Made by a program: the position numbers and the translations under genes
Source of the DNA: an uncultured Gammaproteobacteria bacterium
GTDB taxonomy: Bacteria; Patescibacteriota; Patescibacteriia; Magasanikbacterales; UBA922
Assembly (NCBI GenBank): GCA_964345045.1
Contig: CAYFPM010000001.1
Location: 108,215-172,214 of the forward strand
Length of the DNA stretch: 64,000 nucleotides
Direction: 5' to 3'
In this document: positions 5,336 to 28,984 of the stretch, in pieces
How the letters are laid out: every line of letters starts with the position of its first letter
How positions within the stretch are numbered: position 1 is the stretch's first letter
Notes under the pieces: model-generated
Databases searched by the model: none
What the model saw: only the letters and a program-made list of their open reading frames with translations
What the model was told of the DNA's origin: nothing

Positions 5336-5427
5336 ATTAGTTCATCGCCAATAGCCAATAGTTAATAGTTATTAGATATAACTAAAACAAACGATTGGCT
5401 ATGAACGATGAACGATGAACTATTTAT
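5336..5427. repeat. Palindromic 90-nt intergenic element (AGTTCATCGCCAATAGCCAATAG ... ATTGGCTATGAACGATGAACT), family copy 1 of 4
   Basis: Long imperfect inverted repeat. Related copies at 24352-24458, 27318-27415 and 28912-28984. Confidence 0.75.
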
Positions 5428-7503
5428 ATGGCTAGAGAATATACCCTAGAAAAAACCCGCAACATCGGGATCATGGCGCATATCGACGCCGGAAAAACTA
5501 CTACCACCGAACGTGTCTTGTTTTATACTGGTAAAAAACACAAAATCGGTGAAACTCATGACGGTGAATCCGACATGGACTGGATGGAACAAGAAAAAGA
5601 GCGTGGTATTACTATTACTTCTGCTGCTACCACTTGTTTCTGGCAAAATAATCGTATCAACATTATCGATACTCCAGGTCACGTAGACTTTACTGTAGAA
5701 GTAGAGCGTTCACTACGTGTACTAGATGGTGCTTGTGCTGTTTTTGATGGTTCACAAGGTGTAGAACCACAAAGTGAAACCGTATGGCGCCAAGCCGACA
5801 AATACAAAGTACCTCGTATTTGTTTTGTAAACAAAATGGACAAAATGGGTGCAGATTTTTATATGAGTCTTAACTCAATTTTGGAACGTTTATCAGACAA
5901 AGCTGTTGCTATCCAACTTCCAATCGGAGCGGAAGGCGAATTTAGCGGTGTAATCGATCTTATCGAAAGAAAAGCTTCTAAATTTGAAGGCAACATGGGG
6001 ATCAATGTAGTAGAAATGGAAATCCCTGCCGACATGAAAGACCAAGTAGAAGAGTACCGTGCCAAAATGCTGGAAAAAGTAGCCGAAGCCGATGAAGAAA
6101 CCATGAATGCTTACCTAGAAAACGGTGACCTAACTACAGAACAAATCAAAGCTGCTATTAGAAAAATGGTAATTGCCGATGAACTTTATCCAGTATTATC
6201 TGGTTCTGCACTTGCCAACATTGGTGTACAAAAGATGCTAGATGCTGTTATCGATTACTTGCCATCTCCATTGGAAGTACCACCGCTAGAAGCAACTGAT
6301 GTAAATGACGAAAACAAAAAAGTAGAAATCAAACCAAGTGATGATGAAGCTTTTACTGCCTTGGCTTTCAAAATTGCTACTGATCCATACGTAGGAAAAT
6401 TGGCTTTTTTCCGTGTTTATTCTGGTTCTGTAAAAGCTGGTACCTATGTAGTAAACACTTCAACCGGTGCCAAAGAACGTATTGGTCGTATTGTTCGTCT
6501 ACATGCCAACAGCCGCGAAGAAGTAGACGAAGTATATGCTGGTGAGATTGCTGCTGCTATTGGTTTGAAATCTACCACTACCGGTAACACTCTTTGTGCC
6601 GAAAATCGTCAAGTAGTTTTGGAAAATATTAGTTTTCCAGAACCGGTTATCCATATTGCTATTGAACCAAACACCAAGCAAGATGCCGAAAAAATGAGTT
6701 TGGCTCTACAAAAATTGGCAGAAGAAGACCCAACCTTCAAGGTTCATACCGACGAAGAAACCATGCAAACTATTATTTCTGGAATGGGGGAACTTCACCT
6801 AGACATTATTGTAGATCGCATGAAACGTGAGTTTGGTGTAGAGGCCAATGTTGGTGCTCCGCAAGTAGCTTACAAAGAAACTATCCGTTCCGGTGCAGAA
6901 GGAGAAGGTAAATATGTAAAACAATCTGGTGGTCGTGGTCAATACGGTCACTGTTGGATCAAATTGGAACCAATGGAAGAAGGTGCAGACTTTGAATTCA
7001 TTGACGAAATCAAAGGTGGTACAATTCCAAAAGAATTTATTGGTCCTATCCAAAAAGGTATTAAAGAAGCTATGAGCAAAGGTATTGTAGCTGGTTACCA
7101 AATGGTAGATATCAAAGCTACAGTATACGATGGTAGTTACCATGATGTAGACTCTAGTGAAGTTGCCTTTAAAATGGCCGGATCTATGGCTTTTCAAGCT
7201 GCTGCCAAAAAAGCAGAACCTGTACTACTAGAACCGATCATGAAAGTAGAAGTAACTACTCCAGAAGAAAACATGGGAGACGTAATTGGAGACTTGTCTT
7301 CCAAACGTGGTCAAGTTCAAGAAATGACAGACCGTGGACAAAGCAAGGTAGTTCGTGCCGAAGTACCTTTGTCAGAAATGTTTGGTTATGTAACCAACCT
7401 ACGTAGTATGACCCAAGGTCGTGCCAGCTCCAACATGGAATTTTCTCACTACGCCGAATGTCCTAAAAACGTTGAGGCGCAGGTAGTAGAAGGTAAAAAG
7501 TAG
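5428..7503 (+). CDS. fusA: Elongation factor G
   Basis: [28 protein letters not shown]-motifs and a full-length EF-G architecture. Confidence 0.95.
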
Positions 7504-7535
7504 AATAAGCAGAGTAAGTAGTAAGCAGAGTAAGT

Positions 7536-7567
7536 AAACCCAGCTCAGAGAGGAGCTGGGTTTTTGG
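7536..7567 (+). terminator. Intrinsic terminator after fusA
   Basis: ACCCAGCTC-AGAGAGG-AGCTGGGT followed by TTTTT. Confidence 0.7.
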
Positions 7568-7674
7568 TTATGTAGTTTGTAAGATTGTGTTTTATTGAAT
7601 TAACTGATATATTGCTTAAGCTGCAATTTTATGTTATGATTTTTTAAATATATAAATTTTAATTATAAACATCT

Positions 7675-10600
7675 ATGTTTTCCAAACGTCTGGCTATCTT
7701 GGCCATTATAGGGGGTTTGGGGGGAGCGTTGCTAGGTTTTCAAGAATTAGCAAATGGTTTCACATTGGATTCTGGCAATACAGATCAAGTGAATCTTAAT
7801 ACCTTAAAATTTGATTCTGGCAAAAGTTCGGATATAACTGTTAACAGTCTTTTTTTGTTGGATAATTCGGAAAATGAAAAAGAAGATGAAAAATCTACTT
7901 TTGATACCAAAACAGAAGAAAAAGATGTAAGTAATTTTAGTATATTAAATTTTAATCAAAAATCTACAGAAACAGTTACTGCCACAGTAGATGTAAGTGA
8001 AAATTTTGCAAAAACAGAAGTGACAGATATTAATATTTTGGAACAAAAAAAAGAAGATGAAAAACAAGATCAAGATGAGGGTAGAGAGGATAGTTTGCTT
8101 ATAAAAACTACTCCAATTACTATTACCCCAATAAAGGTGGAGCCGGTGGAGCCTATAAAAAATATTGATGAGGATACCAAACAAAATGAACTACCAAAAA
8201 AAGAAGATCCAAAGGTAATTTCTGAACAGATTGAGACTAAGATTTCTGAGGAGGAAAAACCTGCCGATGCCACAGGCTCTGGCGCTGTGAAAGAAGAGAA
8301 AAAAAGTATTTTTAATATTTTTTCTCCAAAGGTAGACAAGGTTGATATTGAAGTAGAGTCCAAAAAAGATGCTAAAAAAGTAGAAGTAAAAACTTTGCCA
8401 GAAATAAAAGATACTCGTTTGCAAGTTGATTTTGAAATAGAAAAAAAAGAAGATGGATCTGTAAAAGTGGAAGGCTCTAAAGTAAGAACAAATTTGGAAA
8501 TTGCTATTGATAGTAAAGTAAAAGAATCTAACAAAGAAGATGCCCCAAAAGAAGAACAAGTTAAACCAAAAATACTTTCTCCAATCAAACCAACTCTTAT
8601 CAAAACCAAACAAGATCTTGGAACATATGCTGGAGATATTGCTGCTCGTGACACAGATGTAGAATCTGTAGAAATTGAAGAAGACACAGTAGAAGTGTCT
8701 TACAAAAAACCGGCCCGACTCTTTGGTATTTTCCCAACCAAAATAAAGGAAGACGTGGTTGTAAAAACAGATTCATTGGGTCGACCTGATGTAGAAGTAA
8801 AACGTCCTTGGTGGGCTATTTTCACTAGTGAAAAAGATAGTAAAGAAGAAGTAGCCGAAGATATAGAAAAGAGAGTTGGTTACACAGGTACAGGTGCTAG
8901 CAGCCAAGAATCTTCTGTAAGACTAGCTGGAATTCTTGGAGCCATTGATCGTACTATGAAGATTGGTAGTGACAAAGCTACTGGAATTGATGTGGTCTCT
9001 AGTGTAGAAGAAGGTTTGCCAGATAGAGATGACGTGCCAGAAGAAGGTGTACTTGTAAGTGATTTAGATGTCATGATGCGTCAAGCTTTCTTGGGGGACT
9101 TGTTTAATCGTCCTGGTTCTGGAAGCTCGGCTCATATTTTTATCGATCTGGCTATAGAAGGAACTTTTGGTAATTTTGCTTCGCAACAATTAAGTATTGC
9201 CAGCCGCACAGCCGGGGACAGTGGCGAATTTATTGTCGCTGGTATTGGCAGAGTATTGACCATGTTCAACGAAAGAGGACTTAGCCACCAGCATGATGCC
9301 TTCTTGCGTTCAGCTCTAGTACTAGAAGTCGCTAGAGCTATGAATGGAGACGCAGCTGCCGCAGCCTTTGTAAATCAGTATGCTAGTCAAATGAATAATT
9401 TATTGGCAAACAGTGGTGTGCCACTGACAACTTCTGCCAATGGAAATAGAACTTTGGTAAATTTTGCTGTTTGTTCTGGTGCCAATAGAGCTGGTTGTGT
9501 CGATGTCGCTACTCTACTTAGTTCACTTGGTGATCCTCGCTCACTTTCCAATTTGTGTGATCCAGGTAACATGGTGTTGAACGGAATTATGAATTTGGCT
9601 GGAGACGAAAGATATGGATGTGCTCCACCAACCGGAATGTGTGCTACTACCTTGGAAGGTGGTATTAACAATGGAGAAAACGTAGCTCCAGGATTACCAG
9701 GAATACAGCAACCAGAAAATGCCTTGGGACAATCGGATGTTCCAAATGGGGCACAAGGATTTTTGGAAGACCAAGGTATTACCGGTCAAGATTTGGAAAC
9801 CATCTGTGGAGCTCATGCTGCCGGAGCGCTGGGACTAGGCGGTGGAACACAAGAGTGTATAGAAAATGCAATTTCACAAATGGCCAGACAAGATCTGCTT
9901 GGTGCTGCTGGTATGGCTGGTTGTATGGCCGGAGCCCTAGGTCTAGAGCTAGGAGATGACCCAGCCATCGATAGAGTGATTGATGATGCCCTTAACAGTC
10001 GTGGTTGTGGAGACCTAGCCGCCGATGGAGAAAAGAAAGAAACTCCTCCAAAGGAAGAGAAAAAACCAGATCCTTCGAAAGAAACTGAGGAAAAAACTCC
10101 ACCACCAAAAGATAAAGAAGAACCAAAGAAAGAAGAAAAAGGATTTTTTGGTAAATTGTGGGATGCTGTTTTTGGTGGAGGTAATGATAAAAAACCAGGA
10201 GTAGAATTCCAATATGACAAAGAAGGAAAGTTAATTGGTGCAGAATCTGGAAATACAATAGTAAGACTTAATGAAGACGGTGAAGCAATAGTGGAAATAG
10301 GTGGTCAAAATGTAACTGTCGAAGGAAGCCAAAATGAATTGGAAGCTATATTAGACGCCATCGGAGGTGTTTATGATGGAGAAGGTGTAGGAAACATTGT
10401 AGATTATGATTCTACTGGAGAAATATACATTGGAGCACAAAGAGCCCTATTGAAGTTTAAAAATATTAGAGGTTCTTCGTTAGAGCCAAGCTCTGGTTGT
10501 AGCGAAGCTTTGCAAGCTCTAGAAGCAGCCTACACCCAATGTTCTGGCGACATTATAAACAATGCTGCTGCCGGAGCTGGTGTCCCAGGAGGTTCTCCTG

Positions 10601-11133
10601 CCGAAAGAATCGGACGAACTGCTCCAGGATCTAATCCTTTTGGTGGTAGACCAGGCGAGTATGGTGGCACTGCCGGAGCTACAGATCCAATCACTGCGTG
10701 TATGGAAGCCAATAGTTCTAGAACTCATGGTTCTGGTAACTGGGCCTCCAATGGAGGAGCTTGTGGCTTTATGGTTTGTGCCGATGGTACAGATAGTTGT
10801 TGTCAGGGAGCTGGTTTTGGCAATCAAGCAGCCGGAGAATTGCTTCGTGATTTACGAGATTGTACCGAAGTAATGTGTGTCCCAGGTGAGCCATGTCTTT
10901 GTGCTGGTGAACAAAGTACCGGAGAGTTACCAGAGATACCTATTTTTGGAGATGACGGTGGAGTAAATCCTGTAGCCAACGACAGTATTGCCCCAAACGA
11001 AGGTAGTTCGGCCAGAGGATTTTCTGAAACAGTTGGTAACACCAACTTTACAGGTTCTGTAGGAACTGGCTTTGGTGTGGGTTCTGGATCAAATCCAAGC
11101 CAGGAGCTAGACGGTGATGTAAATAGTAGATAA
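7675..11133 (+). CDS. Very large (1152 aa) predicted surface protein: N-terminal TM/signal, long K/E-rich low-complexity region, Gly/Cys-rich C-terminal region
   Basis: MFSKRLAILAIIGGLGGALLGF hydrophobic N-terminus. About 300 aa of KE-rich repeats. C-terminal half is rich in G, C, A and N with many CxxG/C patterns. Confidence 0.6.
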   Translation: MFSKRLAILAIIGGLGGALLGFQELANGFTLDSGNTDQVNLNTLKFDSGKSSDITVNSLFLLDNSENEKEDEKSTFDTKTEEKDVSNFSILNFNQKSTETVTATVDVSENFAKTEVTDINILEQKKEDEKQDQDEGREDSLLIKTTPITITPIKVEPVEPIKNIDEDTKQNELPKKEDPKVISEQIETKISEEEKPADATGSGAVKEEKKSIFNIFSPKVDKVDIEVESKKDAKKVEVKTLPEIKDTRLQVDFEIEKKEDGSVKVEGSKVRTNLEIAIDSKVKESNKEDAPKEEQVKPKILSPIKPTLIKTKQDLGTYAGDIAARDTDVESVEIEEDTVEVSYKKPARLFGIFPTKIKEDVVVKTDSLGRPDVEVKRPWWAIFTSEKDSKEEVAEDIEKRVGYTGTGASSQESSVRLAGILGAIDRTMKIGSDKATGIDVVSSVEEGLPDRDDVPEEGVLVSDLDVMMRQAFLGDLFNRPGSGSSAHIFIDLAIEGTFGNFASQQLSIASRTAGDSGEFIVAGIGRVLTMFNERGLSHQHDAFLRSALVLEVARAMNGDAAAAAFVNQYASQMNNLLANSGVPLTTSANGNRTLVNFAVCSGANRAGCVDVATLLSSLGDPRSLSNLCDPGNMVLNGIMNLAGDERYGCAPPTGMCATTLEGGINNGENVAPGLPGIQQPENALGQSDVPNGAQGFLEDQGITGQDLETICGAHAAGALGLGGGTQECIENAISQMARQDLLGAAGMAGCMAGALGLELGDDPAIDRVIDDALNSRGCGDLAADGEKKETPPKEEKKPDPSKETEEKTPPPKDKEEPKKEEKGFFGKLWDAVFGGGNDKKPGVEFQYDKEGKLIGAESGNTIVRLNEDGEAIVEIGGQNVTVEGSQNELEAILDAIGGVYDGEGVGNIVDYDSTGEIYIGAQRALLKFKNIRGSSLEPSSGCSEALQALEAAYTQCSGDIINNAAAGAGVPGGSPAERIGRTAPGSNPFGGRPGEYGGTAGATDPITACMEANSSRTHGSGNWASNGGACGFMVCADGTDSCCQGAGFGNQAAGELLRDLRDCTEVMCVPGEPCLCAGEQSTGELPEIPIFGDDGGVNPVANDSIAPNEGSSARGFSETVGNTNFTGSVGTGFGVGSGSNPSQELDGDVNSR

Positions 11134-11155
11134 TTAAATATTAAAGTTTAAGTAT

Positions 11156-11710
11156 ATGGAACATCCAAAAATTATACAGAAAATAAGTAAGCGCAATCTT
11201 TCACTAGCTGGTATTATTGCTGTAGTTGGTTTAGCCTCCCTTATTTTTGGTTTGCAATCCAGCATTGAATTGACCTTTGCCAGGTTCACTGTACCTCCAA
11301 TTTTGTTTGTGATTTTAGGTCTTGTTATTATCTTGGTAGCTATTGTTTGGGGTTTAATTGGTTTGAAATCAGAACATTGCGCAGAATGTAAATCAGAATT
11401 AACCTCTGAACAAGCTAGATTTGAATTTGAGGCTCAAAAAACTGTATTGGAAGCGATAAGTAAAAAGGAAGTCACTCTTCTTACCAGTTTGTCAATGGCC
11501 GAAGACCCGGGGAATGAAATTGAAATTGATTTTAACTATTGTAAAAAGTGTCATAACATTGGACAGGTAGAAGTAAATCGTCGCGAAGAATGGAATCCAG
11601 ACAATTTATTGCCAGAAGAAAATGTAGATAACAAAGATTTTATAAAATCTTTGGGAAAAATTACAGAAGAACAAGAAAAATTAAGAGAAGAAATGGAAGA
11701 TGATGAATAG
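11156..11710 (+). CDS. Membrane protein with two TM helices and a CxxC...CxxC zinc-ribbon-like segment
   Basis: Hydrophobic helices at about 15-70. Motifs CAECK and CKKCH. Acidic C-terminus. Confidence 0.45.
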   Translation: MEHPKIIQKISKRNLSLAGIIAVVGLASLIFGLQSSIELTFARFTVPPILFVILGLVIILVAIVWGLIGLKSEHCAECKSELTSEQARFEFEAQKTVLEAISKKEVTLLTSLSMAEDPGNEIEIDFNYCKKCHNIGQVEVNRREEWNPDNLLPEENVDNKDFIKSLGKITEEQEKLREEMEDDE

Positions 11711-11752
11711 AAAAAATATTAATTTATTTATTTACTTTAATTAATGTAATTT

Positions 11753-12223
11753 ATGAAGAAAATAATTGGAGTTGCTTTGGTAACACTTAGTATGGTTCTT
11801 TTTTTGAGTGGCTGTGCTGTAGGAGAAACAGGTAAACATAATACTTTGGTGGACAAATTAGATGCTGTAGTATCTGCAGACCAGGTATTTTATGGAGAAT
11901 TAGAAAATTATGAACTAGGAGGAGACACTAGTGCTTTAAGAACATCTTTTGATTCTTTCAAAGTTGCTACTGTTGAGTTGGATACTTTTTTTTCAGAGAC
12001 AAAACTTGATAAAGCCCAAGAATCTTTTCAGATAGAGTATGACGTTATTTACAAAAAAGCAGTGGATAGTTATCTATCCAAAGCAGAAGAAGTTGTAGAG
12101 GCTATAGAATCTGGAGTAAATGAGGAAGAGCTTAATGTTTTGTTTGAAGAGATTGTAGAACCAGCTAATGATTTTATAGAAGCAGATAATTCTATGACAG
12201 AGGCTATAAATAAGCAGGCTTAA
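11753..12223 (+). CDS. Putative lipoprotein
   Basis: Signal peptide with lipobox LFLSGC. Confidence 0.5.
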   Translation: MKKIIGVALVTLSMVLFLSGCAVGETGKHNTLVDKLDAVVSADQVFYGELENYELGGDTSALRTSFDSFKVATVELDTFFSETKLDKAQESFQIEYDVIYKKAVDSYLSKAEEVVEAIESGVNEEELNVLFEEIVEPANDFIEADNSMTEAINKQA

Positions 12224-12233
12224 TATACTAAGT

Positions 12234-12266
12234 TAAAAAAAGAACCTTCAAAAGGTTCTTTTTTGT
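12234..12266 (+). terminator. Intrinsic terminator
   Basis: AAAAAAAGAACCTTC-AAAA-GGTTCTTTTTTG. Confidence 0.7.
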
Positions 12267-12330
12267 TTTTTTACAGTTTTTTGTATAAATGCTATTATTA
12301 TACTAATAATTTTTTAAACATCATGAATAT

Positions 12331-19490: not shown

Positions 19491-19617
19491 CGTGACCACG
19501 TAATAGGTAATAGTTTTTTACCTTAAATTAGTTATTTTATAAATATATTATATTCCCGCTGGATACAAATCTATTCCGACCACTCGGGGTAGTGCGGGCA
19601 ACATTATTCTAAGCCGT

Positions 19618-20808
19618 ATGGCCGATTTTGATCGTTCCAAGGCTCACGTTAATGTGGGTACTATTGGTCACGTAGACCATGGAAAAACAACTACAACAGC
19701 TGCTATCTTGAAGGTAGCTGCCGCTGCTGGTTTGACTGCTCAAACCAAAGACGTAGACGCTATCGACTCTGCTCCAGAAGAGAAGCAACGTGGTATTACC
19801 ATTGCTACTGCTCATGTAGAGTACGAAACTGCCAACAGACACTACGCTCACGTAGACTGTCCTGGTCACGCCGATTATGTAAAAAACATGATCACTGGTG
19901 CTGCCCAAATGGATGGTTCTATCCTTGTAGTATCTGCTGCTGATGGTCCTATGCCTCAGACTCGTGAGCACATTTTGCTTGCTCGTCAAGTAGGTGTACC
20001 TTACATCATCGTATTTTTGAACAAAGTTGATCAAGTATCTGATCCAGAACTTATCGACCTAGTAGAAGAAGAAATTCGTGATCTATTGAAGAAATACGAA
20101 TTCCCAGGAGACGAAACTCCAATTATCCGTGGTTCAGCTCTAAAAGCCTTGGAAAACCCAAGTGACGAAGCTGCTGCTAAACCAATTTTGGACCTATTGA
20201 ACACTTTGGATGAATACATCCCAACCCCAGAACGTGATCTAGACAAAGACTTCCTAATGCCTATCGAAGACGTATTTTCTATCGAAGGTCGTGGTACTGT
20301 AGTAACCGGTCGTGTAGAACGTGGTTCTGTAAAAGTTGGTGAAGAAATCGAAATGGTAGGTATGCAAACCGAAACCATGAAAACCACTGTTACAGGTGTA
20401 GAGATGTTTAACAAATCTCTAGATCAAGCTCAAGCTGGTGACAATGCTGGTGTTCTTCTTCGTGGTACTAAGAAAGAAGAAGTACAACGTGGTATGGTGC
20501 TTTCCAAACCAGGTACTATTACTCCACATACCGAATTCGAAGCTGAAATTTACGCTCTTACCAAAGAAGAAGGTGGACGTCACAAACCATTCTTTACTGG
20601 TTACAAACCTCAGTTTTACATCCGTACAACTGACGTAACTGGTGATGTGACTTTGCCAGAAGGTACAGAGATGGTAATGCCAGGAGACACTGTAAACGGT
20701 AAAGTTAAACTTATCGTTCCAGTAGCTATGGAAGAAAAAATGCGTTTCGCTATCCGTGAAGGTGGACGTACAGTAGGAGCTGGTGTTGTAACTAAAATTA
20801 TAAACTAA
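19618..20808 (+). CDS. tuf: Elongation factor Tu
   Basis: [37 protein letters not shown]. Full length, 396 aa. Confidence 0.95.
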
Positions 20809-20817
20809 ATATTGTGA

Positions 20818-20858
20818 TCCTGCCCCGACCTAGTGTTGGGGCAGGGTTGTTCTTTTTT
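20818..20858 (+). terminator. Intrinsic terminator after tuf
   Basis: CCTGCCCCGACC-TAGTG-TTGGGGCAGG followed by a T-run. Confidence 0.7.
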
Positions 20859-20865
20859 CCAAGTT

Positions 20866-21210
20866 ATGGCTACAAAAACAGATGAAAAAACCAAACAAGA
20901 AGTAGGTCAAAAGATTAGAATCAAAATCTCTGCTTACGATAACAAGATTATCGATAGTGCTACCAAGACCATTATAGAAACCGCAGAGCGTAATAACGCC
21001 AAGGTTGTTGGTCCTGTGCCACTTCCAACCGCTAAGAACAAATTTAGTATCAACCGTTCTACTTTTGTTAGTAAAACTTCTCAAGAACAATACGAGATGC
21101 GTACTCACAAAAGATTGGTGGACATTCTAAATCCATCACCAAGAGCCATTGATGCTCTTATGAACCTAAATTTGCCTAGTGGGGTAGACGTAGAGATCAA
21201 GATGCAATAA
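20866..21210 (+). CDS. rpsJ: 30S ribosomal protein S10
   Basis: [41 protein letters not shown]. The start was set at MATKTD downstream of the terminator hairpin. Confidence 0.9.
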
Positions 21211-21270
21211 GCATTATTGTGGATCAACTCCACGTCCGGTTTCTAAAAATTTTAGTAACAGGATGTGGGG

Positions 21271-21299
21271 TTGACAGGGGATAAGTAATAGGCTATAAT
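21271..21299 (+). promoter_or_regulatory. Consensus sigma70 promoter (TTGACA-N17-TATAAT) internal to the S10 operon, upstream of rplC
   Basis: TTGACAGGGGATAAGTAATAGGCTATAAT. Confidence 0.6.
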
Positions 21300-21557
21300 T
21301 GTGCCACCCTATATTAAATAAAAAAGCCAATAGAGAAATCTATTGCAAAGATCATTGTTTTGCAAGCTAAAAAAGATTCTCCTTTTAGAGAAAAACCTTT
21401 AGTGAGTAAAAAATGAGACGAGGTATTTAAATTGAATATATTAACCGCCATACAAACCATAAAGGTTTTTGGCTAGAAGTTTGGACATTTGCACTTTAGA
21501 ATACGAAATTGCAGGTGTTTGGACTTCTAGTTTTTGTTATGATCCGGATCGGATCCA
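21300..21557 (+). promoter_or_regulatory. About 260-nt untranslated leader with an attenuator-like hairpin + T-run (21474-21540) preceding rplC
   Basis: No ORF. CTAGAAGT...ACTTCTAG stem followed by TTTTTGTT. Additional small hairpins. Confidence 0.4.
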
Positions 21558-22394
21558 ATGCGTGATACTATGAAATACATATTAGGAAAAAAATTAGGCA
21601 TGACTCAAGTTTTTAAGGACGACGGTACTGTTGTTCCTGTAACCAGAGTTCAAGCCGGACCATGTGTTGTAACACAGGTAAAAACAAAAGAAAAAGACGG
21701 AGTAAATTCTGTACAGTTAGGTTTTGGTGTACAAAAATCTTTTAGATTGAACAAGCCACAACAAGGACATTTGAAAGGTCTTACTTCTGTAAAAATCATG
21801 AGAGAAGTTCGTATGAATGATGATCATGGTTTGAAAAGAGGCGATACTTTTACTGCCGAAACTTTTAAAGCCGGTGAAAAAGTTCAAGTTGTTGGTTGGT
21901 CAAAAGGTAGAGGATTCCAAGGTGTAGTAAAACGTCATGGCTTTGGTGGTTCTCCTGCCAGTCATGGTCACAAAGACCAATTGCGTATGCCTGGTTCTAT
22001 TGGTGCTACCGACGCAGCCAGAGTTTTCAAAGGTACTCGCATGGGTGGTCACATGGGTGACAACAGAGTAACTGTAAAGAATTTGGAAATTGTAGAAATA
22101 AATCCAGCAGAAAACGAAATTCTTATCAAAGGTGCTGTTCCTGGAGCTAGAGGTGGTTTCCTTATTGTAGCTAATTCCGAAGGTAATATTGAAATCGTAG
22201 AAGATAAGAAAACAGAAGAAAAAGTAGAAGAGGTTAAAAATGAAGAAGTTGTAGAAACTAAAACAGAAAATACAGAAGAAAAAAAACCCGTCGACGCCGA
22301 AGGCTCTGACGTGGTGAAAGAAGAGGCTCCTGCAGAAACCAAAGAAGAATCTGTAGAAGCAGCTGAAGATAAAAAAGATGAAGAATCTAAATAA
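21558..22394 (+). CDS. rplC: 50S ribosomal protein L3 with about 70-aa K/E-rich C-terminal extension (alternative start 21570)
   Basis: KYILGKKLGMTQVF...VVGWSKGRGFQGVVKRHGF. The extension ends ...KKPVDAEGSDVVKEEAPAETKEE... Confidence 0.9.
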   Translation: MRDTMKYILGKKLGMTQVFKDDGTVVPVTRVQAGPCVVTQVKTKEKDGVNSVQLGFGVQKSFRLNKPQQGHLKGLTSVKIMREVRMNDDHGLKRGDTFTAETFKAGEKVQVVGWSKGRGFQGVVKRHGFGGSPASHGHKDQLRMPGSIGATDAARVFKGTRMGGHMGDNRVTVKNLEIVEINPAENEILIKGAVPGARGGFLIVANSEGNIEIVEDKKTEEKVEEVKNEEVVETKTENTEEKKPVDAEGSDVVKEEAPAETKEESVEAAEDKKDEESK

Positions 22395-22396
22395 AT

Positions 22397-23026
22397 ATGG
22401 CCAAAGTTGATTTGTACAATTTGGAAGGTAAAGTAAGTGGTAGCATTGATTTGAATGATGCAATATTTGCTGTACCTGTAAAAGAAGATGTAGTACACCA
22501 AGTATACTTGGCTCAAATGGCTAATGCCAGACAACCATGGGCTCACAGCAAAGACAAAAGTGAAGTTCGTGGTGGTGGTAAAAAACCATGGAGACAAAAA
22601 GGTACTGGTCGTGCTCGTCATGGTTCTATCCGCTCTCCACTTTGGAAAGGCGGTGGTGTGACTTTTGGTCCTTTGAATACCAGAAATTACAAACAAAAAA
22701 TTAACAAAAAAGCTAATAAAAACGCTGTACGCATGTGTTTGTCAGCCAAAGCTGCCGATGGTAAATTGATTATTTTAGATAGTTTGACTACCGATGGTAA
22801 AACAAAAGGAATGGCCAAATTGCGTGCTATGTTGCCAGGTTTTGGTAAAACAACCATTATGCTTTCTGGCAAAGCAGACGAATCATTGAACAGAGCTACC
22901 AGAAATATACCAAGATTAGATTTGCAAAGAGCTCTAGATGTAAACGTGGTAGACTTACTTCATCACCAATACATAATTATTTCCAAAGAAGGGATAGAAG
23001 TATTGGAAAAAAGATTGAATAAATAA
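22397..23026 (+). CDS. rplD: 50S ribosomal protein L4
   Basis: SKDKSEVRGGGKKPWRQKGTGRARHGSIRSPLWKGGGVTFGP. Confidence 0.9.
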   Translation: MAKVDLYNLEGKVSGSIDLNDAIFAVPVKEDVVHQVYLAQMANARQPWAHSKDKSEVRGGGKKPWRQKGTGRARHGSIRSPLWKGGGVTFGPLNTRNYKQKINKKANKNAVRMCLSAKAADGKLIILDSLTTDGKTKGMAKLRAMLPGFGKTTIMLSGKADESLNRATRNIPRLDLQRALDVNVVDLLHHQYIIISKEGIEVLEKRLNK

Positions 23027-23027
23027 T

Positions 23028-23489
23028 ATGGGAATATTGGATAAACTAAAAAAGAAAGATGAAGAAAATGTAGAAGAAGCAAAAACTGCTACTGTTAAGG
23101 CTGCTCCAAAAAAGAACGCTACATCCTCCGACGCAAAAAGCTCTGGCGTGACAAAAGAAAAGAAAGTAGAAGAGAGTAAAGAAGTTAAATCTGTAGCGAC
23201 AAAAGTAATAACTGATACTGTTTTGGTTAAACCATTCATTAGTGAAAAAGCTGTAATGCAAGAAGCCAAAGGAATTTATACTTTTGTAGTAAAAAATAAG
23301 GCAACAAAAGTAGATGTAAAAAAGGCAGTAAAAGCAGTTTATGGAGTAATCCCAGCTAAAGTAAGAATGTTGAACATGGAAGGTAAAAGAACCTCTTTTG
23401 GTATCCGCAGAGGCAAGAGATCTGATTGGAAAAAAGCAGTTGTAACTTTGCCAAAAGGTAAGACTATAAGTATTCACGAAGGCGTATAA
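23028..23489 (+). CDS. rplW: 50S ribosomal protein L23 with about 55-aa K/E-rich N-terminal extension
   Basis: The core [11 protein letters not shown]...[14 protein letters not shown] matches L23. The N-terminal extension contains ...[16 protein letters not shown]... Confidence 0.9.
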
Positions 23490-23499
23490 TTATAAAGGT

Positions 23500-24348
23500 A
23501 TGGCAGTAAAAGTATACAAACCAACCACACCAGGAAGACGCAAAGCTAGTGTCCAAGATTTTTCTAATATCACAAAAACCAAACCAGAAAAATCTTTGAC
23601 AAAAAGACTAAACAGAAAATCTGGTAGAAATAACCAAGGTAAAATTACTGTTCGTCACAGAGGTGGTGGAGCCAAAAAATTATACAGAATGGTTGATTTC
23701 AAAAGAACTGTAAACAAAGATGTTGTTGCCGAAGTTTTGGCTATTGAATACGATCCAAATCGTGGTCCTAGGGTGGCTCTTATCAAATACGAAAATGGTA
23801 CCAAGTCTTATGTCTTGGCTCCAGAAGGTTTGAAAGTAGGAGACAAAGTAATGTCTTCTAGCAAAAAGGTAGAAGCCAAGATAGGAAACCGCATGCCACT
23901 ACAACATATCCCAGTAGGTTTGTTTGTATATAATATCGAACTAAATCCTGGAGACGGTGGTAAAATGGCCAGAGGTGCTGGTAATGGGGCTCAGCTTCAA
24001 GTAATTGAAGGTGGTATCGCTCAATTAAAATTACCTTCTGGTGAAGTAAGACAAGTAAAAAAAGAATGTGCTGCTACTGTTGGTAAGGTAGGTAATGCTG
24101 ATTATCAATTGGTAAGACTTGGTAAGGCTGGTAGAAAAAGACATATGGGATGGAAGCCAACTGTAAAAGGTAAGAACATGAACCCAGTTGATCACCCTCA
24201 TGGGGGTGGTGAAGGTCACTCTCCAATTGGTTTGAAGAAAGGACCTAAGACCAAATGGGGTAAATTGGCTATGGGTGTTAAAACTCGTGAAAAAGGTAAA
24301 TGGAGTGATAAATTTATAGTTCAAAGAAGAAAAAAGAAAAAAAGATAA
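23500..24348 (+). CDS. rplB: 50S ribosomal protein L2
   Basis: ...[22 protein letters not shown]...[24 protein letters not shown]. Confidence 0.95.
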
Positions 24349-24351
24349 ATT

Positions 24352-24458
24352 ACTAGTTCATAGCCAATAGTTCTTAGTTCATAAGTTGTAAGTATCTAGA
24401 AGATAAACAAATATGAAATAAAGACTATTGGCCGTGAACCAAGAACGATTAACTAAAA
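24352..24458. repeat. Palindromic intergenic element, family copy 2 (AGTTCATAGCCAATAGTTCTTAGTTCAT ... ATTGGCCGTGAACCAAGAACGATTAACT)
   Basis: Inverted-repeat arms. Same family as 5336-5427. Confidence 0.75.
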
Positions 24459-24460
24459 TT

Positions 24461-24748
24461 ATGTCAAGAAGTCTTAAAAAAGGGCCTTATATAGACCCAA
24501 AACTAGCCAAGAAAGTACAAAAGGCTAAAGATGCCAACGACAAGAAGCCTATTAAAACTTGGGCTCGTGCATCTACTATTACACCGGAAATGGTGGGAAT
24601 GACTTTTTTGGTACACAATGGTAGAGATTTCTTGAGTGTGTTTGTAGATGAGAACATGGTTGGCCACAAGCTGGGAGAATTTTCTCCAACTAGAAAATTT
24701 GTTCGCCATGGTGGTAAGATGCAAAAAGAACAAGAAAAAGGTAAATAA
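24461..24748 (+). CDS. rpsS: 30S ribosomal protein S19
   Basis: [15 protein letters not shown]...[11 protein letters not shown]...[13 protein letters not shown]. The start was chosen after the palindromic element. Confidence 0.9.
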
Positions 24749-24750
24749 AT

Positions 24751-25296
24751 ATGAATAAAACATTAGATACAACTGCACACCTAAGAAAACTAAGAATGAG
24801 CCCAAGAAAGGTACGCTTGATTGTTGATCTTGTTCGTGGTATGAATGCCAAAGAAGCTGTATTGCAACTTCAGTTTTCTAAAAAACATGCGGCTAGACCA
24901 GTAAAAAAATTGATCGAATCTGCTATTGCCAATGCTAAACACAATCATAATGTTTTGGAAAATACCTTGGTAGTAAAAACAGCTTTTGTAAATGAAGGAC
25001 AAACTTTAAAACGTTGGATGCCAAGAGCTATGGGTAGAGCCACTCCACTTCGCAAAAGAATGTCTCATGTAACTATAGTATTGTCTGGAGAAGTAGATGA
25101 AAAAGCAGCCAAGCAAGAAAATAATGAACCAAAAAAGCAAGAAAGTAAAACAGAAAAAGTAGAAACTAAAGATTCTGAAAAAAAAGAAACTAAAAAAACA
25201 ACAGCAAAAAAAACAACTAAAAAAGTAGAGAAATCAAAGAAACCCGCCTCCGCTAAAAGCTCCGGCGTGGTGAAAGAAAGTAAGAAAAAAGCATAG
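24751..25296 (+). CDS. rplV: 50S ribosomal protein L22 with about 65-aa K/E-rich C-terminal extension
   Basis: The AHLRKLRMSPRKVRLIVDLVRGM core matches L22. The tail ends ...KPASAKSSGVVKESKKKA. Confidence 0.9.
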   Translation: MNKTLDTTAHLRKLRMSPRKVRLIVDLVRGMNAKEAVLQLQFSKKHAARPVKKLIESAIANAKHNHNVLENTLVVKTAFVNEGQTLKRWMPRAMGRATPLRKRMSHVTIVLSGEVDEKAAKQENNEPKKQESKTEKVETKDSEKKETKKTTAKKTTKKVEKSKKPASAKSSGVVKESKKKA

Positions 25297-25329
25297 AAAT
25301 TATTTATTAGAAATTAGGAATTAATATAT

Positions 25330-26025
25330 ATGGGTCATAAAGTCCATCCAAAAATTCATCGCACTCAGGTAATTTATACTTGGGATTCTCGCTGGTTCAA
25401 AAAAAGAAACTACGCCGAGTATGCTGAACAGGATATCAAAATCCGTGAATTTTTGATGAAAAAATTTAAAGACGCCCATATTGATGCTATTGGTATAGAA
25501 CGTGGTCCAAAAAATATGACCATTACTATAATGGCTGCCAAACCAGGATTTATCATTGGTCGTGGCGGTGAAGGACTAGATTCTTTGAGAAAACACGTTG
25601 AAAGAAAATTTTTGAAAATGAAACTAAAAGTAAAATTAAATATCAAAGAGGTTCGTTCTCCTGCTTTGTCTGCTGCTGTTGTAGCTCAAACTATGGCCTC
25701 TGATATTGAAAGACGTATCCCGTTTAGAAGAGTAATGAAACAATCTATTGAACGTGTAAGGAAAGCTGGGGCTCAAGGTGTAAAAGTATCTATGGCAGGA
25801 CGCCTAAACGGAGTTGATATTGCTAGAACCGAAACTTTGTCAGCTGGAAAAGTTCCATTGATTACTTTGAGAAGTGATGTAGATTTTTACAAACATTACG
25901 CTATCACTACTTATGGTAAGATAGGTATTAAAGTTTGGATTTACAAAGGTGAAGTATTTGGTAGAAAAGAAACTGTCTCCGAAATTGCTGATGCTGAACC
26001 AAAATCTAAACAAAAAAGAAAATAA
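25330..26025 (+). CDS. rpsC: 30S ribosomal protein S3
   Basis: MGHKVHPKIHRTQVIY... with KH and S3-C domains. Confidence 0.95.
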   Translation: MGHKVHPKIHRTQVIYTWDSRWFKKRNYAEYAEQDIKIREFLMKKFKDAHIDAIGIERGPKNMTITIMAAKPGFIIGRGGEGLDSLRKHVERKFLKMKLKVKLNIKEVRSPALSAAVVAQTMASDIERRIPFRRVMKQSIERVRKAGAQGVKVSMAGRLNGVDIARTETLSAGKVPLITLRSDVDFYKHYAITTYGKIGIKVWIYKGEVFGRKETVSEIADAEPKSKQKRK

Positions 26026-26031
26026 CTTTGT

Positions 26032-26445
26032 ATGTTGTTGCCAAAAAAAGTAAAACACAGAAAGTGGCATAAGCCACGTAGAGCCAACAAAGGTGTAGCT
26101 ACCCGCATAAACACTGTAGCTTTTGGTACTTATGGTCTAAAATCTACTACTCATGCTTGGGTTAGCTCTCGTCAAATTGAAGCTGCTCGTCGTGTGCTTA
26201 CCAGATATGTAAAACGTGGTGGTAAAATTTGGATTAGACTTTTCCCAGATAGACCTGTAACTAAAAAAGGTAATGAATTGCCTATGGGGGGAGGAAAAGG
26301 TTCTCCAGAATTCTACGTATGTACTGTAAAACCAGGAACTGTAATGTTTGAGATGGAAGGTATTCCAGAAGAAAAAGCTATGGAAGCTTTGAAATTGGCT
26401 AGCTACAAATTGCCACTTAAGACAAAGATTGTTACCAAAAAATAA
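26032..26445 (+). CDS. rplP: 50S ribosomal protein L16
   Basis: [16 protein letters not shown]...[11 protein letters not shown]. Confidence 0.95.
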
Positions 26446-26448
26446 TAT

Positions 26449-26649
26449 ATGGATTTTACTGAAATTAAAAACAAATCAGAAAAAGAACTTCATGACTTGC
26501 TAAATGAAAAACGATCAGAGTTGAGAGAACTTGAATTTAAAGTTAGTGAAAGACAGCTAAAAAATGTCCGTTCTATAAGAGACACCAAAAAGGTGATAGC
26601 ACGTATTTTGACTGCTATTAAAGCAATAACCAATAAACAAAACCAATAA
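26449..26649 (+). CDS. rpmC: 50S ribosomal protein L29
   Basis: 66-aa helical protein in the conserved position. KSEKELHDLLNEKRSELRELEFK. Confidence 0.85.
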   Translation: MDFTEIKNKSEKELHDLLNEKRSELRELEFKVSERQLKNVRSIRDTKKVIARILTAIKAITNKQNQ

Positions 26650-26654
26650 TTAGT

Positions 26655-26933
26655 ATGGCAGAAAAAACTGTAGAAAATTCAAAAAAAGTTATTAACCGTG
26701 AATTTGATGGTGTGGTTGTTGGTGCCAAAGCAGACAAAACTATTAGTGTTTTGGTAAAAACTGTAAAAGTGCATTCTAAATACAAAAAACAATATACTGT
26801 TAGTAAAAAGTACGCTGTACACGATGAAAAAGGACAAGCCAAAGTAGGAGATATTGTAAAGTTTGCAGAATGTCGTCCAATTAGCAAAACCAAAAAATGG
26901 AGATTGGTTAGTGTAGTAAAAACTAGCGCTTAA
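26655..26933 (+). CDS. rpsQ: 30S ribosomal protein S17
   Basis: GVVVGAKADKTISVLV...YKKQYTVSKKYAVHDE...GDIVKFAECRPISKTKKW. Confidence 0.9.
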   Translation: MAEKTVENSKKVINREFDGVVVGAKADKTISVLVKTVKVHSKYKKQYTVSKKYAVHDEKGQAKVGDIVKFAECRPISKTKKWRLVSVVKTSA

Positions 26934-26945
26934 TTATCGTTTTGT

Positions 26946-27317
26946 ATGATTCAACATAGAACAATCTTGAAAGTAGCAGACAATACAGGTGCCAAGAAGC
27001 TTATGTGTATTCGTGTTCTTGGTGGTTACAAAAAACGATATGCTCAAATTGGAGATGTTATTACTTGTACTGTAAAAGAAGCTGCTCCTCGTGGTATGGT
27101 AAAAAAGAGTGAGATCGTACACGCTGTGATTGTAAGACAACGTAAGGAAAAACGTCGTAAAGATGGAACTTATATCCGTTTTGATGAGAATTCTGCTGTA
27201 GTAATTGATAAAAAAACCAAAGAACCAAAAGGTACTCGTATCTTTGGCCCCATTGCCAGAGAACTACGTGGTAAAGGTTATCAAAAAATTGTATCATTAG
27301 CCCCAGAAGTTCTGTAG
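26946..27317 (+). CDS. rplN: 50S ribosomal protein L14
   Basis: [27 protein letters not shown]. Confidence 0.95.
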
Positions 27318-27415
27318 TAGTTCATAGCCAATAGTTCTTAGTTCATAGTGTGTAAGTAAAATATCTATGAAACAAAGACTATTGGCTACGAACCAAGAAC
27401 GATGAACTAATTATA
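27318..27415. repeat. Palindromic intergenic element, family copy 3
   Basis: TAGTTCATAGCCAATAGTTCTTAGTTCATAG...GACTATTGGCTACGAACCAAGAACGATGAACT. Confidence 0.75.
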
Positions 27416-27417
27416 TT

Positions 27418-27738
27418 ATGAAAATTAAAACTGGTGACAATGTAAAAGTTATATCTGGAAAAGACCGTGGTAAAACTGGTAAAGTTATTCAGGTATTAAC
27501 AGATAAAAAAACAAAACAAACTTTTGTGGTAGTTGAAGGTGTAAATATGAGAAAAAAACACCTAAGAACTAATCAAGCAGATCAAAAAGGTCAAATTATA
27601 GAATTGTCTGCTCCGATGAACGCCAGTAATGTAATGCTAATTGATCCAAAATCAAAAAAGTCTACTAGAGTTGGTTTTAAAATAGAAGGTAAGGATAAAA
27701 AAAGAGTCGCCAAAAAAAGTGGTGAATACATAGAATAA
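27418..27738 (+). CDS. rplX: 50S ribosomal protein L24
   Basis: MKIKTGDNVKVISGKDRGKTGKV (KOW motif). Confidence 0.9.
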   Translation: MKIKTGDNVKVISGKDRGKTGKVIQVLTDKKTKQTFVVVEGVNMRKKHLRTNQADQKGQIIELSAPMNASNVMLIDPKSKKSTRVGFKIEGKDKKRVAKKSGEYIE

Positions 27739-27740
27739 TT

Positions 27741-28286
27741 ATGGAACCTGTACTATACACACAATATAAAAAAGAAGTTGTTCCTGCTCTAAAGGAAGAG
27801 TTTGGATACAAAAACATAATGCAAGTCCCTAAAATCAAAAAGGTGATTGTTAATGTTGGTTATGGAAGACATGTAAAAGATAAATCTTATATAGATAAAG
27901 TAGAAAATACTTTGGCTACTATTACTGGGCAAAAACCTGTTCATAACAAAGCTCGTAAATCTATCTCTAACTTTAAGATTAGAGCCGGTATGCCAATTGG
28001 AGCCTCTGTTACCTTGCGTGGTAAGTCAATGTATGATTTCCTATATAGATTAAATCACTTGGCATTGCCTCGTGTAAGAGATTTTCGTGGTATTAGTAAA
28101 AAAGGTTTTGATAAACAAGGTAACTATACTTTGGGTCTAAAAGAACAAATTGCTTTCCCAGAGTTGGGTGCAGAAACGGCTGACTTTGTACATGGTATGG
28201 AAATTACTGTAGTAACTAGCGCAAATAGCAAAAAAGAAGGTGAATCTTTATTGAGTAAGTTAGGTTTTCCGTTTAAAGCAAAATAA
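27741..28286 (+). CDS. rplE: 50S ribosomal protein L5
   Basis: ...VPKIKKVIVNVG...RGMPIGASVTLRG...YDFLYRL. Confidence 0.95.
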   Translation: MEPVLYTQYKKEVVPALKEEFGYKNIMQVPKIKKVIVNVGYGRHVKDKSYIDKVENTLATITGQKPVHNKARKSISNFKIRAGMPIGASVTLRGKSMYDFLYRLNHLALPRVRDFRGISKKGFDKQGNYTLGLKEQIAFPELGAETADFVHGMEITVVTSANSKKEGESLLSKLGFPFKAK

Positions 28287-28292
28287 GTATAT

Positions 28293-28478
28293 ATGGCAAC
28301 AAAAGCACAAATAGCAAAATCAAATAAAAAACCAAAGTTTAGCACTAGAACTGTTAGACGTTGTTGGAAGTGTGGTCGTAAACGTGGTTTTATGAGAAAA
28401 TTTGGTTTGTGCAGAATTTGTTTTAGAGAATTGGCAAACGATGGAAAATTGCCAGGTGTACGTAAATCAAGTTGGTAA
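28293..28478 (+). CDS. rpsZ: 30S ribosomal protein S14 type Z (zinc-binding)
   Basis: 61 aa with [20 protein letters not shown]. Confidence 0.9.
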
Positions 28479-28521
28479 ATTTATAAAATAAATATAAGAA
28501 TATTTTCATCAAGTTAAGATT

Positions 28522-28911
28522 ATGATGACAGATCCAATAGCAGACATGTTAACTCGCATCAGAAATGCCCAGCAAATAAGAAAAGCTGAGGTTGATGTAC
28601 CATACTCAAAACTAAAACTAAAATTATTAGAAATTCTTAGTGCTGAAAGTTATATTTCTGGTTTTGAAAAAGTTGGTGACAATCACCCATTATTGCGTGT
28701 TAAACTAAAATACGAAGGCAAAGAATCTGCCATTCGCTCTATTAAACGTGAAAGTAAACCAGGTCATAGAGTGTATTGTAAAGCAGGTGAGATGCCAAGA
28801 ATTTTGAATGATTACGGTATTGCTGTTGTTTCTACTTCTAAAGGTCTTATGACTAATAAAGAAGCTAGAAAGCAAGGCATAGGTGGAGAAATTATTTGTT
28901 CAATATATTAA
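28522..28911 (+). CDS. rpsH: 30S ribosomal protein S8
   Basis: TDPIADMLTRIRNA... Confidence 0.95.
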   Translation: MMTDPIADMLTRIRNAQQIRKAEVDVPYSKLKLKLLEILSAESYISGFEKVGDNHPLLRVKLKYEGKESAIRSIKRESKPGHRVYCKAGEMPRILNDYGIAVVSTSKGLMTNKEARKQGIGGEIICSIY

Positions 28912-28984
28912 TGGTTCATGGCCAATCGTCCATTGCCATTAATATTTGACGATTGGCGATTGGCTATGAACTAAGAACTACTTT
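28912..28984. repeat. Palindromic intergenic element, family copy 4 (shorter variant)
   Basis: GGTTCATGGCCAATCGTCCATTGCC...ACGATTGGCGATTGGCTATGAACTAAGAACT. Confidence 0.65.

Follow-up and report, generated by a model that had tools for sequence, protein, structure and literature searches.

Five copies of a hairpin-forming repeat were identified in a 64-kb window of contig CAYFPM010000001.1 (the window being the whole stretch of DNA that was analyzed); four lie in spacers next to ribosomal protein (r-protein) genes, and the fifth lies in frame within trmD. They belong to a real and previously undescribed family, the heptamer-modular palindromic repeats of Candidatus Magasanikbacteria, which has a moderate preference for the junctions of r-protein operons. 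[quoted passage not shown] Genes at the copies were identified by Pfam, with the gene identities being read from identical contigs of metagenome project PRJEB17505. The copies are as follows.

5339 to 5421, plus strand: copy 1, in the rpsG/fusA (S7/EF-G) spacer; left arm AGTTCAT CGCCAAT AGCCAAT AGTTAAT, right arm ATTGGCT ATGAACG ATGAACG ATGAACT; predicted RNA fold -29.2 kcal/mol, z -8.6
24355 to 24454, plus strand: copy 2, in the rplB/rpsS (L2/S19) spacer; predicted fold -31.5 kcal/mol, z -8.0
27319 to 27408, plus strand: copy 3, in the rplN/rplX (L14/L24) spacer; predicted fold -29.8 kcal/mol, z -6.0
28913 to 28979, plus strand: copy 4, a short variant in the rpsH/rplF (S8/L6) spacer; units GGTTCAT GGCCAAT CGTCCAT ... 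ATTGGCG ATTGGCT ATGAACT AAGAACT, with no TAG in the left arm; predicted fold -33.6 kcal/mol, z -7.8
15752 to 15815, plus strand: copy 5, in frame within trmD (15189 to 15935); predicted fold -25.2 kcal/mol, z -4.6

A first-pass annotation of this DNA had placed an element at each of the four r-protein junctions, and all four are present there. It had described them as copies of one 90-nt palindrome with shared arms. The palindromic character holds, but copies 1 to 4 have no uniform length and range from 67 to 100 nt. The 28-nt left arm that was said to be common to all is exact in copies 2 and 3, which are identical across those 28 nt, and not in the other two. The right-arm motif recurs in three copies with one or two mismatches, whereas the rpsH/rplF copy could not be matched within three mismatches. 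The copy in trmD had been missed, and the tandem heptamer build of the arms was absent from the description. The earlier observation is real but imprecise and is partly confirmed, and the interpretation given with it is partly supported.

All of the window copies have in common a 13-nt core, GTTCATNGCCAAT (GTTCAT-N-GCCAAT), and its complement (ATTGGC-N-ATGAAC). Exact matches to this core within the 64 kb are confined to copies 1 to 4 and one further place, position 15766, which is copy 5, and shuffling gave an expectation of 0 matches for the arm motifs that had been quoted. The long mRNA hairpins that had been anticipated are borne out by the predicted folds of copies 1 to 4, which range from -29 to -34 kcal/mol (z -6.0 to -8.6), with 0 of 200 shuffled sequences folding equally well. 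These four copies are far beyond chance. Across 80.6 kb of the source contig, just the five known copies were found, and r-protein junctions account for four. In public gene calls, rpsS begins at GTG 24434, within the right arm of copy 2; the true start is ATG 24461, 6 nt past the copy, which gives the canonical S19 N terminus MSRSLKKGP. Repeat elements such as this one mislead gene callers.

The arms are short tandem arrays whose period is 7 (Tandem Repeats Finder), and such heptamer arrays are present in every copy of the family. An arm contains two to five heptamers of two alternating unit types and faces its inverted counterpart across a variable loop of 10 to 50 nt, for a total element length of 54 to 107 nt. 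The left-arm units are AGTTCAT, AGCCAAT, AGTTCTT, AGTTAAT, and similar sequences, with AGTTCAT and AGCCAAT (plus one-base variants) often alternating as a 14-mer; the right-arm units are their complements (ATTGGCT, ATGAACT, AAGAACT, and similar). Arms start with (T)AGTTCAT, and because the units join as T/AG, the left arm has a TAG every 7 nt and thus a stop codon in all three frames. The sequence 3' of the right arms is ATTTAT, AAAATT, AATTAT, or ACTTTTT, followed by ATG. Conservation is uneven along the arms: the outer two units mirror each other, with 5.7/7 and 4.9/7 identity in register (outer 14-mers AGTTCATAGCCAAT and ATTGGCTATGAACT), whereas the third unit is frequently unmirrored (3.7/7), with a mismatch pattern that is conserved across species. 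Overall, unit type is better kept than exact arm complementarity (4.8/7 in register versus 4.4/7 off register). In an asymmetric subfamily of approximately 66 nt, unit order is retained in five to six species, and the loops of several species are related (AGTTACAGGCCT).

The copy within trmD retains this organization while being translated. It reads in frame as TTCATT GCCAATG GTTCATC GCCAATG ... GATGAAC CATTGGC ... CATGAAC and encodes roughly IANGSSPMVSDEPLATGHELF; the inter-unit A is replaced by G or C, so that no TAG stop is left. The true start of trmD is at 15189. Compared with the TrmD structure PDB 8byh, window residues 191 to 210 have no counterpart, and the structure bridges the gap with three residues. 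The insert of about 20 amino acids is likewise absent from the shortest orthologues, and it occupies what we take, from established knowledge of TrmD, to be the interdomain linker. Among 22 Magasanikbacteria TrmD sequences, the length at this site ranges from approximately 3 to approximately 35 residues. Loci L044 and L045, from two other species, have other heptamer palindromes there, AGTTCAA x5 / nAGAACT x5 in L044 and CAGCCTT x4 / GAAAGCC x4 in L045. Heptamer arrays appear to evolve in place, the clearest sign being this site, at which three species have different homogenized units.

Species-representative genomes were scanned with a two-arm pattern for which about 2 chance matches were expected by our own estimate. 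Of the 37 loci found, 30 are true members; the seven others, in Pelosinus (5 loci), Zobellia, and Kaistella, have no heptamer arrays and were rejected as chance. At least 10 species of Magasanikbacteria are represented among the true loci, along with other metagenome-assembled genomes (MAGs) of Patescibacteria and some MAGs labeled Gammaproteobacteria, and the GC content of member loci spans 32 to 54%. A scan of metagenomes returned 26 duplicates of the genome matches, 11 to 12 new unique members, and five GC-rich chance matches that were dropped for want of heptamer arrays. Altogether, the family is present in at least 15 related genomes, with approximately 44 further unique copies beyond the window in related genomes and metagenomes. 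Viral contigs gave 0 matches, and carriage by phage was rejected. A literature search returned no description of interspersed palindromic repeats in the Candidate Phyla Radiation (CPR)/Patescibacteria.

The window itself, which derives from a genome of Candidatus Magasanikbacteria (CPR), has 38.9% GC, a lone 16S rRNA gene, no L30 gene, and a 61-amino-acid S14, and the TrmD sequences nearest to its own are labeled Candidatus Magasanikbacteria by their sources. Seven loci come from MAGs labeled "uncultured Gammaproteobacteria," but their gene content resembles that of the Magasanikbacteria loci. For example, the ThyA encoded at one of them is 71% identical to that of a Magasanikbacteria copy with an element at the same junction, and L011, which has the same label, holds a homologue of an orphan 905-amino-acid protein of the window. 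Given this likeness, these loci, the taxonomy of which is provisional, were not counted as evidence of cross-phylum transfer.

When orthologous spacers are compared among relatives, the occupied junction differs between species. Spacers in the S10/spc/str cluster are 0 to 30 nt by default, and every spacer of 85 to 120 nt contains a repeat. The rplN/rplX junction is filled in the window, L043, and L058 and empty in L009 and L034; rplX/rplE is filled only in L008 and rplF/rplR only in L009. Homologous loops connect different junctions of one genome, as in copies 2 and 3 of the window (repeat families D6 and D8, 82 to 91% identity) and in rplV/rpsC of L023 and rpsH/rplF of L034. They also connect different species, with the loop at trx/gdh in L017 matching those of L023 and L034 and the loop at rplX/rplE in L008 matching that at ybaB/recR in L013. 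In L036, two copies of the ~66-nt subfamily lie in opposite orientations around pyrB. The loops are not needed for a hairpin, and their conservation between nonorthologous sites and between species indicates that the elements were dispersed whole. Elements have been copied in full, together with their loops, to new locations both inside a genome and from one genome to another.

At 30 of 41 sites, the element fills the very short AT-rich spacer between tightly packed codirectional genes, with gaps of ≤30 nt on each side; occasionally, it is found instead in frame in a tolerant protein loop, as in the TrmD linker. Typically, 1 to 10 nt separate it from the upstream stop codon and 0 to 12 nt separate the last GAACT from the next ATG. 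Outside the window, the sites are as follows.

L012: rpsL/rpsG
L023: rplW/rplB, rplB/rpsS, and rplV/rpsC
L043 and L058: rplN/rplX
L008: rplX/rplE
L034: rpsN/rpsH and rpsH/rplF
L009 = L026: rplF/rplR
L019: rpmI/rplT
Other sites: secE/nusG; upstream of tuf; upstream of infB; ybaB/recR (three times)
Other sites, continued: pyrC/pyrB; both sides of pyrB; dut/thyA and thyA (three in all); trx/gdh
Other sites, concluded: HIT/NUDIX; ftsE/ftsX; macB/macB; der/dprA; HU; atpF; a TraG-like gene

Most copies are thus in nonribosomal housekeeping operons. Nevertheless, 10 of the 44 nonwindow copies adjoin r-protein genes versus approximately 6% expected (binomial P = 2e-4, or 2e-3 at an 8% baseline), a comparison in which the baseline is our own estimate from ~53 r-protein genes in ~1,000 to 1,300 CPR genes rather than a census and in which the counts are not fully independent, since five of the r-protein copies come from a single MAG, RIFCSPHIGHO2_01_FULL_33_34. 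The enrichment at r-protein genes that the first-pass annotation had proposed to look for is approximately 4-fold; it is real yet not exclusive. The excess may come from either of two sources, namely, insertion targeted to DNA that is highly transcribed or loss that is slower when an element lies between essential genes. Mimicry of an r-protein autoregulatory site (S7 at rpsL/rpsG, S8 at rplE, or L20 at rpmI) was rejected because the same element occurs at at least 10 different junctions.

Copies 2 to 4 lie within what is likely a single transcription unit from rplC to secY, the putative bounds of which are the following two features.

21271 to 21299, plus strand: promoter-like TTGACA-17-TATAAT in the rpsJ/rplC spacer, 12/12 match
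32366 to 32390, plus strand: terminator-like hairpin and T-run after secY

A terminator and promoter scan of 19300 to 32400 flagged none of the elements, and none has a T-tail. Intrinsic terminator, attenuator, and promoter roles were rejected accordingly, which leaves the operon-internal attenuator, one of three readings offered in the first-pass annotation, without support. Of the other two, a role in RNase III processing is possible, with stems long enough for that enzyme, although the evidence does not require it. When 37 elements were folded both ways, the antisense strand was more stable in 22 and the sense strand in 15 (Wilcoxon P = 0.04), the opposite of what would be expected from G·U-tolerant selection on the transcript. 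Together with the occurrence of both orientations and of a translated copy in trmD, this bias points to a DNA-level element with the transcript hairpin as a by-product.

Upstream of this unit, a strong terminator-like hairpin is found between tuf and rpsJ (20814 to 20850). The rpsJ/rplC spacer is 347 nt long (21211 to 21557) and contains stable structure; across all of the Magasanikbacteria loci examined, its length is 347 to 466 nt, suggesting that the rplC-secY operon has a conserved leader.

Shine-Dalgarno sequences are scarce in the window, with any of GGAG, GAGG, AGGA, or AAGG upstream of the start in only ~8 of 44 genes; the 3' end of the 16S rRNA has CCUCC. The usual start context is AT rich, TAAATAAAT-ATG. 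Insertion into a spacer of ~10 to 25 nt would normally part the stop and start codons by 70 to 100 nt. A cotranscribed hairpin (-15 to -47 kcal/mol) would bring them back to within ~15 to 28 nt, and its closure may keep both translational coupling and operon integrity. In the predicted structures, the unpaired stop-to-stem plus stem-to-ATG distances of copies 1 to 4 are 24, 28, 26, and 15 nt, which is within the ordinary spacer range of the S10/spc/str cluster. Where translation proceeds without Shine-Dalgarno pairing, the hairpin would preserve coupling along with an unstructured start region, and such insertions could persist in essential r-protein operons because coupling is preserved. After insertion, the heptamer arrays would change in place through replication slippage and arm-to-arm correction. 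The r-protein excess could then arise from bias of insertion to heavily transcribed single-stranded DNA or from biased retention, since deletions between essential genes would be tolerated only when precise. Effects on the cleavage or stability of the mRNA, if any, would be a secondary consequence and not the reason that the family exists.

In its behavior, the family matches Rickettsia palindromic elements above all and, in addition, MITEs and REPINs (PMC10969869, PMC3116915). A MITE landing preferentially between r-protein genes is also the best supported of the three readings in the first-pass annotation, with qualifications: the elements are dispersed, their positions differ by species, internal sequence is kept across nonorthologous sites, and there is the ~4-fold excess at r-protein genes, but most copies are in other housekeeping operons, and neither a target-site duplication nor, in the sequence available, a transposase was found. 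Like MITEs, the elements are small (<~500 bp), noncoding, multicopy, and dispersed, with terminal inverted repeats. Rickettsia palindromic elements, as summarized in PMC10969869, are likewise short palindromic selfish repeats of a reduced genome, with both intergenic insertions and in-frame, peptide-adding insertions in housekeeping proteins. The copy in trmD is such an in-frame insertion sparing its host protein, a likeness in behavior only. Unlike the present family, Rickettsia palindromic elements measure ~100 to 150 bp, have no tandem heptamers, and fall into families defined within Rickettsia, and the two share no sequence similarity. They are also frequent in open reading frames (44 insertions in R. 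conorii), whereas one such site was seen here, and the hosts differ (Rickettsiales versus CPR).

The system formed by REPs or REPINs and their associated tyrosine transposases (RAYTs) is similar in that its extragenic hairpin repeats consist of two inverted arms around a spacer, are often found within operons and cotranscribed, and are long-lived in a lineage (PMC3116915, PMC3337134). However, a REP is a 20- to 40-nt imperfect palindrome with a 5' GTAG or CGTC tag (PMC3733652). Each REP is itself palindromic, whereas the arms of the present elements are direct heptamer arrays, none of which has a conserved GTAG or CGTC tag at its 5' end; membership among REPs was rejected on the lack of the tag. 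The density of five copies per 80.6 kb is also below that of typical REP-rich genomes. Correia elements (CREE), enterobacterial repetitive intergenic consensus (ERIC) sequences, and Chunjie MITEs resemble the family as small noncoding inverted-repeat elements that sit in unbroken operons and form RNA hairpins. Their terminal inverted repeats are defined and come with target-site duplications (TA in the case of Correia), and many have promoters or integration host factor sites. In the present family, neither a duplication nor promoter-like sites were found. In Rfam, no element has a match at the gathering threshold; there are subthreshold matches to generic microRNA hairpins (24 to 34 bits versus thresholds of 74 to 97), and the only features of the window at threshold are the 16S rRNA and two tRNAs.

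A further comparison concerns the short tandemly repeated repetitive (STRR) sequences of cyanobacteria and the TAACTGA repeats of Beggiatoaceae. According to PMC4679880, these too are 7-nt stop-containing units in short intergenic tandem arrays a few nucleotides upstream of starts, also inside r-protein operons, in Shine-Dalgarno-poor genomes and with a patchy distribution among lineages. They are direct repeats of a single unit, with one inverted set among 170 in "Maribeggiatoa." The present family, in contrast, has two alternating units, inverted pairing, and a conserved loop, and the structure is dispersed whole.

Several points weigh against a selfish family, in addition to the two limits on the r-protein comparison given above. 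The flanks of 33 elements have no visible repeated direct duplication of 2 to 10 nt at the target site; a duplication of 1 to 2 nt is still possible, since degenerate outer units make the element ends fuzzy. No transposase, RAYT, or other mobilizing gene was seen in the 80.6 kb of the source contig covered by Pfam listings or in the loci, and the genes that are flanked by two copies are ordinary (pyrB in L036, HIT in L024, rpsH in L034, and rplB in L023). Presence/absence or unit-number variants were not found among the four samples carrying the strain, and no recent movement is thus documented; contigs from other samples of the same project are identical over 7.3 kb and thereby uninformative on strain-level polymorphism. 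The heptamers are highly conserved over genomes that are 22 GC points apart, which could equally mean that a host protein reads them. Furthermore, positive selection for an intercistronic hairpin could instead underlie both the enrichment at r-protein genes and the fact that unrelated hairpin repeats have independently reached junctions of the same kinds.

That last point would fit hairpins that are selected cis-acting mRNA elements, namely RNase III sites or barriers to 3' exonucleases that were repeatedly recruited, like E. coli REPs and the Correia elements of Neisseria. We regard this as unlikely, although much about the elements is compatible with it. As RNA, the hairpins have very high stability (z -4.6 to -8.6), they are internal to one transcription unit without terminator or promoter features, r-protein junctions are enriched ~4-fold, unrelated hairpin repeats occur at the same kinds of junctions in relatives, and for Correia elements, RNase III is known to cleave the RNA hairpins at the inverted repeats (PMC10969869). 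Selection on the mRNA is harder to reconcile with sense folds that are not favored over antisense folds, with a subfamily found in both orientations relative to transcription, and with third heptamer units that are systematically unmirrored. Moreover, occupancy varies among species, such that no junction requires an element, one copy is translated within trmD, and the majority of copies are in nonribosomal operons.

It is more doubtful still that the heptamers are modules recognized by some as-yet-undiscovered protein of Magasanikbacteria (a nuclease, a transposase, or an RNA-binding factor) and that the hairpins were domesticated as intercistronic devices for nearly Shine-Dalgarno-free translation. 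If they were, the hairpins would hold stop and start codons together for reinitiation and give stops in all frames through a TAG every 7 nt. They would also provide cleavage or stability points in a 25-gene ribosomal operon, as a CPR-specific layer of control over r-protein expression.

Formation without transposition is improbable as a full account. Under this explanation, the palindromes arise in place by heptamer slippage of the replicase and intrastrand template switching, and shared units are mutational convergence. The single TrmD linker site with different units in three species agrees with this, as do the many other palindromes of 7- to 9-nt tandem units, with genome-specific units, in the window and the loci. 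In many bacteria, moreover, heptanucleotide repeats are the most common of the long simple repeats, and they have been attributed to polymerase slippage (Mrazek 2007, as summarized in PMC4679880). However, an in-place origin cannot explain identical 14-mers and homologous loops at nonorthologous sites in genomes whose r-proteins are 60 to 75% identical and whose GC content runs from 32 to 54%, nor can it account for an asymmetric unit order being conserved throughout the 66-nt subfamily. Slippage and template switching in place probably contribute to turnover after insertion.

Finally, it is very improbable that the arrays are double-stranded DNA sites for a lineage-specific protein (nucleoid-associated protein, regulator, or DNA uptake receptor) with the palindrome reflecting a multimeric binder: unit sequence is strongly conserved whatever the genome GC, unit type is kept better than exact arm complementarity, and copies recur beside DNA metabolism genes (ybaB/recR three times, HU, dprA, and thyA three times), but exact 13-nt cores are never scattered singly in the 64 kb as uptake sequences or operators would be, the positions are between cistrons inside operons and not at promoters, and there is no candidate binder. 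DNA uptake sequences were rejected on the same grounds, as exact cores are confined to the elements.

The window and the related loci contain further small repeats, of which the palindromes of the window, all of the same architectural class and built from other units, are listed here.

4251 to 4334, plus strand: nonamer palindrome (GAAGCCAGA... / CCTCTTAAG...) directly upstream of rpsL (D1)
4762 to 4840, plus strand: second copy of this nonamer palindrome, filling the rpsL/rpsG spacer (D1)
30998 to 31044, plus strand: heptamer palindrome AAGATAT AAGATAC ... ATCTTAT in the rplO/secY spacer
35903 to 35984, plus strand: CGAAT-type palindrome of 7- to 8-mers between ruvX and recO
44770 to 44826, plus strand: heptamer palindrome TAACAnG x3 / TGTTAnA x4 between two codirectional genes
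58492 to 58591, minus strand: nonamer palindrome (AAGCTTACA...) between pth and der

The regions on either side of rpsL (4249 to 4344 and 4755 to 4850) are 89% identical, and looser relatives of the nonamer palindrome are at 1220 to 1250 / 1358 to 1398 and in the pth/der spacer. Among the loci, L008 (MFQY01000042) has an unrelated GC-rich repeat of ~100 nt (..AGACCAACGGGATCCCTCGCTCGGTC..CTCGGGATGACA..) at rplD/rplW, rpmC/rpsQ, rpsQ/rplN, and rplE/rpsN, and a similar motif is found in the rpsG/fusA spacer of L045. The rplW/rplB spacer of L030 has an octamer palindrome, AGCACTTG; rplO/secY of L043 has an AAATCCG heptamer palindrome; and L037 has an ATAACAC x6 array at ~1077 to 1105. The lineage thus seems to be generally prone to short-period repeat arrays in its spacers, and the presence of unrelated small repeats at r-protein junctions fits a general sink or tolerance effect there.

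A 43-nt repeat is found at 22280 to 22322, 23117 to 23159, 25236 to 25278, and 30496 to 30538, in Lys/Glu-rich extensions of L3, L23, L22, and S5, and at 8253 to 8295, in an orphan protein of 1,152 amino acids. The encoded peptides (..PVDAEGSDVVKEE, ..SAKSSGVVKES, ..KKDSGVVKEE, and ..ATGSGAVKEE) share a motif that could be a tail module common to these proteins or a further repeat inserted in frame. A GC-rich repeat of 78 nt (CCCCTATTAGGGGGAG...CCCCGATCGAAGCATCGGGG...) occurs at 890 to 967 and, inverted, 49 kb away at 50324 to 50401 (94% complementary), with a partial relative at 40642 to 40680. Three terminator-like hairpins (AAAAAAAGCCTAC..GTAAGCTTTTTTT) at 2067 to 2113, 2499 to 2545, and 3093 to 3139 are 87 to 91% identical, and each follows one of three consecutive minus-strand genes, one of which encodes a GerE-type helix-turn-helix protein. 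Very stable intergenic structures were also predicted at 34533 to 34714 (adk/map, 182 nt, -85.7 kcal/mol) and 42691 to 42996 (306 nt, -82 kcal/mol), neither of which has an Rfam match at the gathering threshold.

The genes fusA and tuf are neighbors in most bacteria. Here, a 12-kb block (7675 to 19335) between them encodes orphan proteins of 1,152, 184, 156, and 905 amino acids that belong to no family in Pfam or NCBIfam. Between trmD and tuf, there is also a complete but solitary 16S rRNA gene (16329 to 17822), which no 23S, 5S, or tRNA gene adjoins.

Genomes of the CPR/Patescibacteria are usually described as streamlined and repeat poor. The present family indicates that selfish hairpin DNA can persist across a whole class of the CPR, in the few nucleotides between essential, coupled genes and even in a protein linker. 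Its architecture joins the heptanucleotide simple repeats exemplified by STRR and TAACTGA with MITE- or REP-like palindromes and suggests a route from one to the other. The elements also offer a marker of the Magasanikbacteria lineage, as well as natural cases in which to test how translation is coupled across structured spacers in organisms without Shine-Dalgarno sites.

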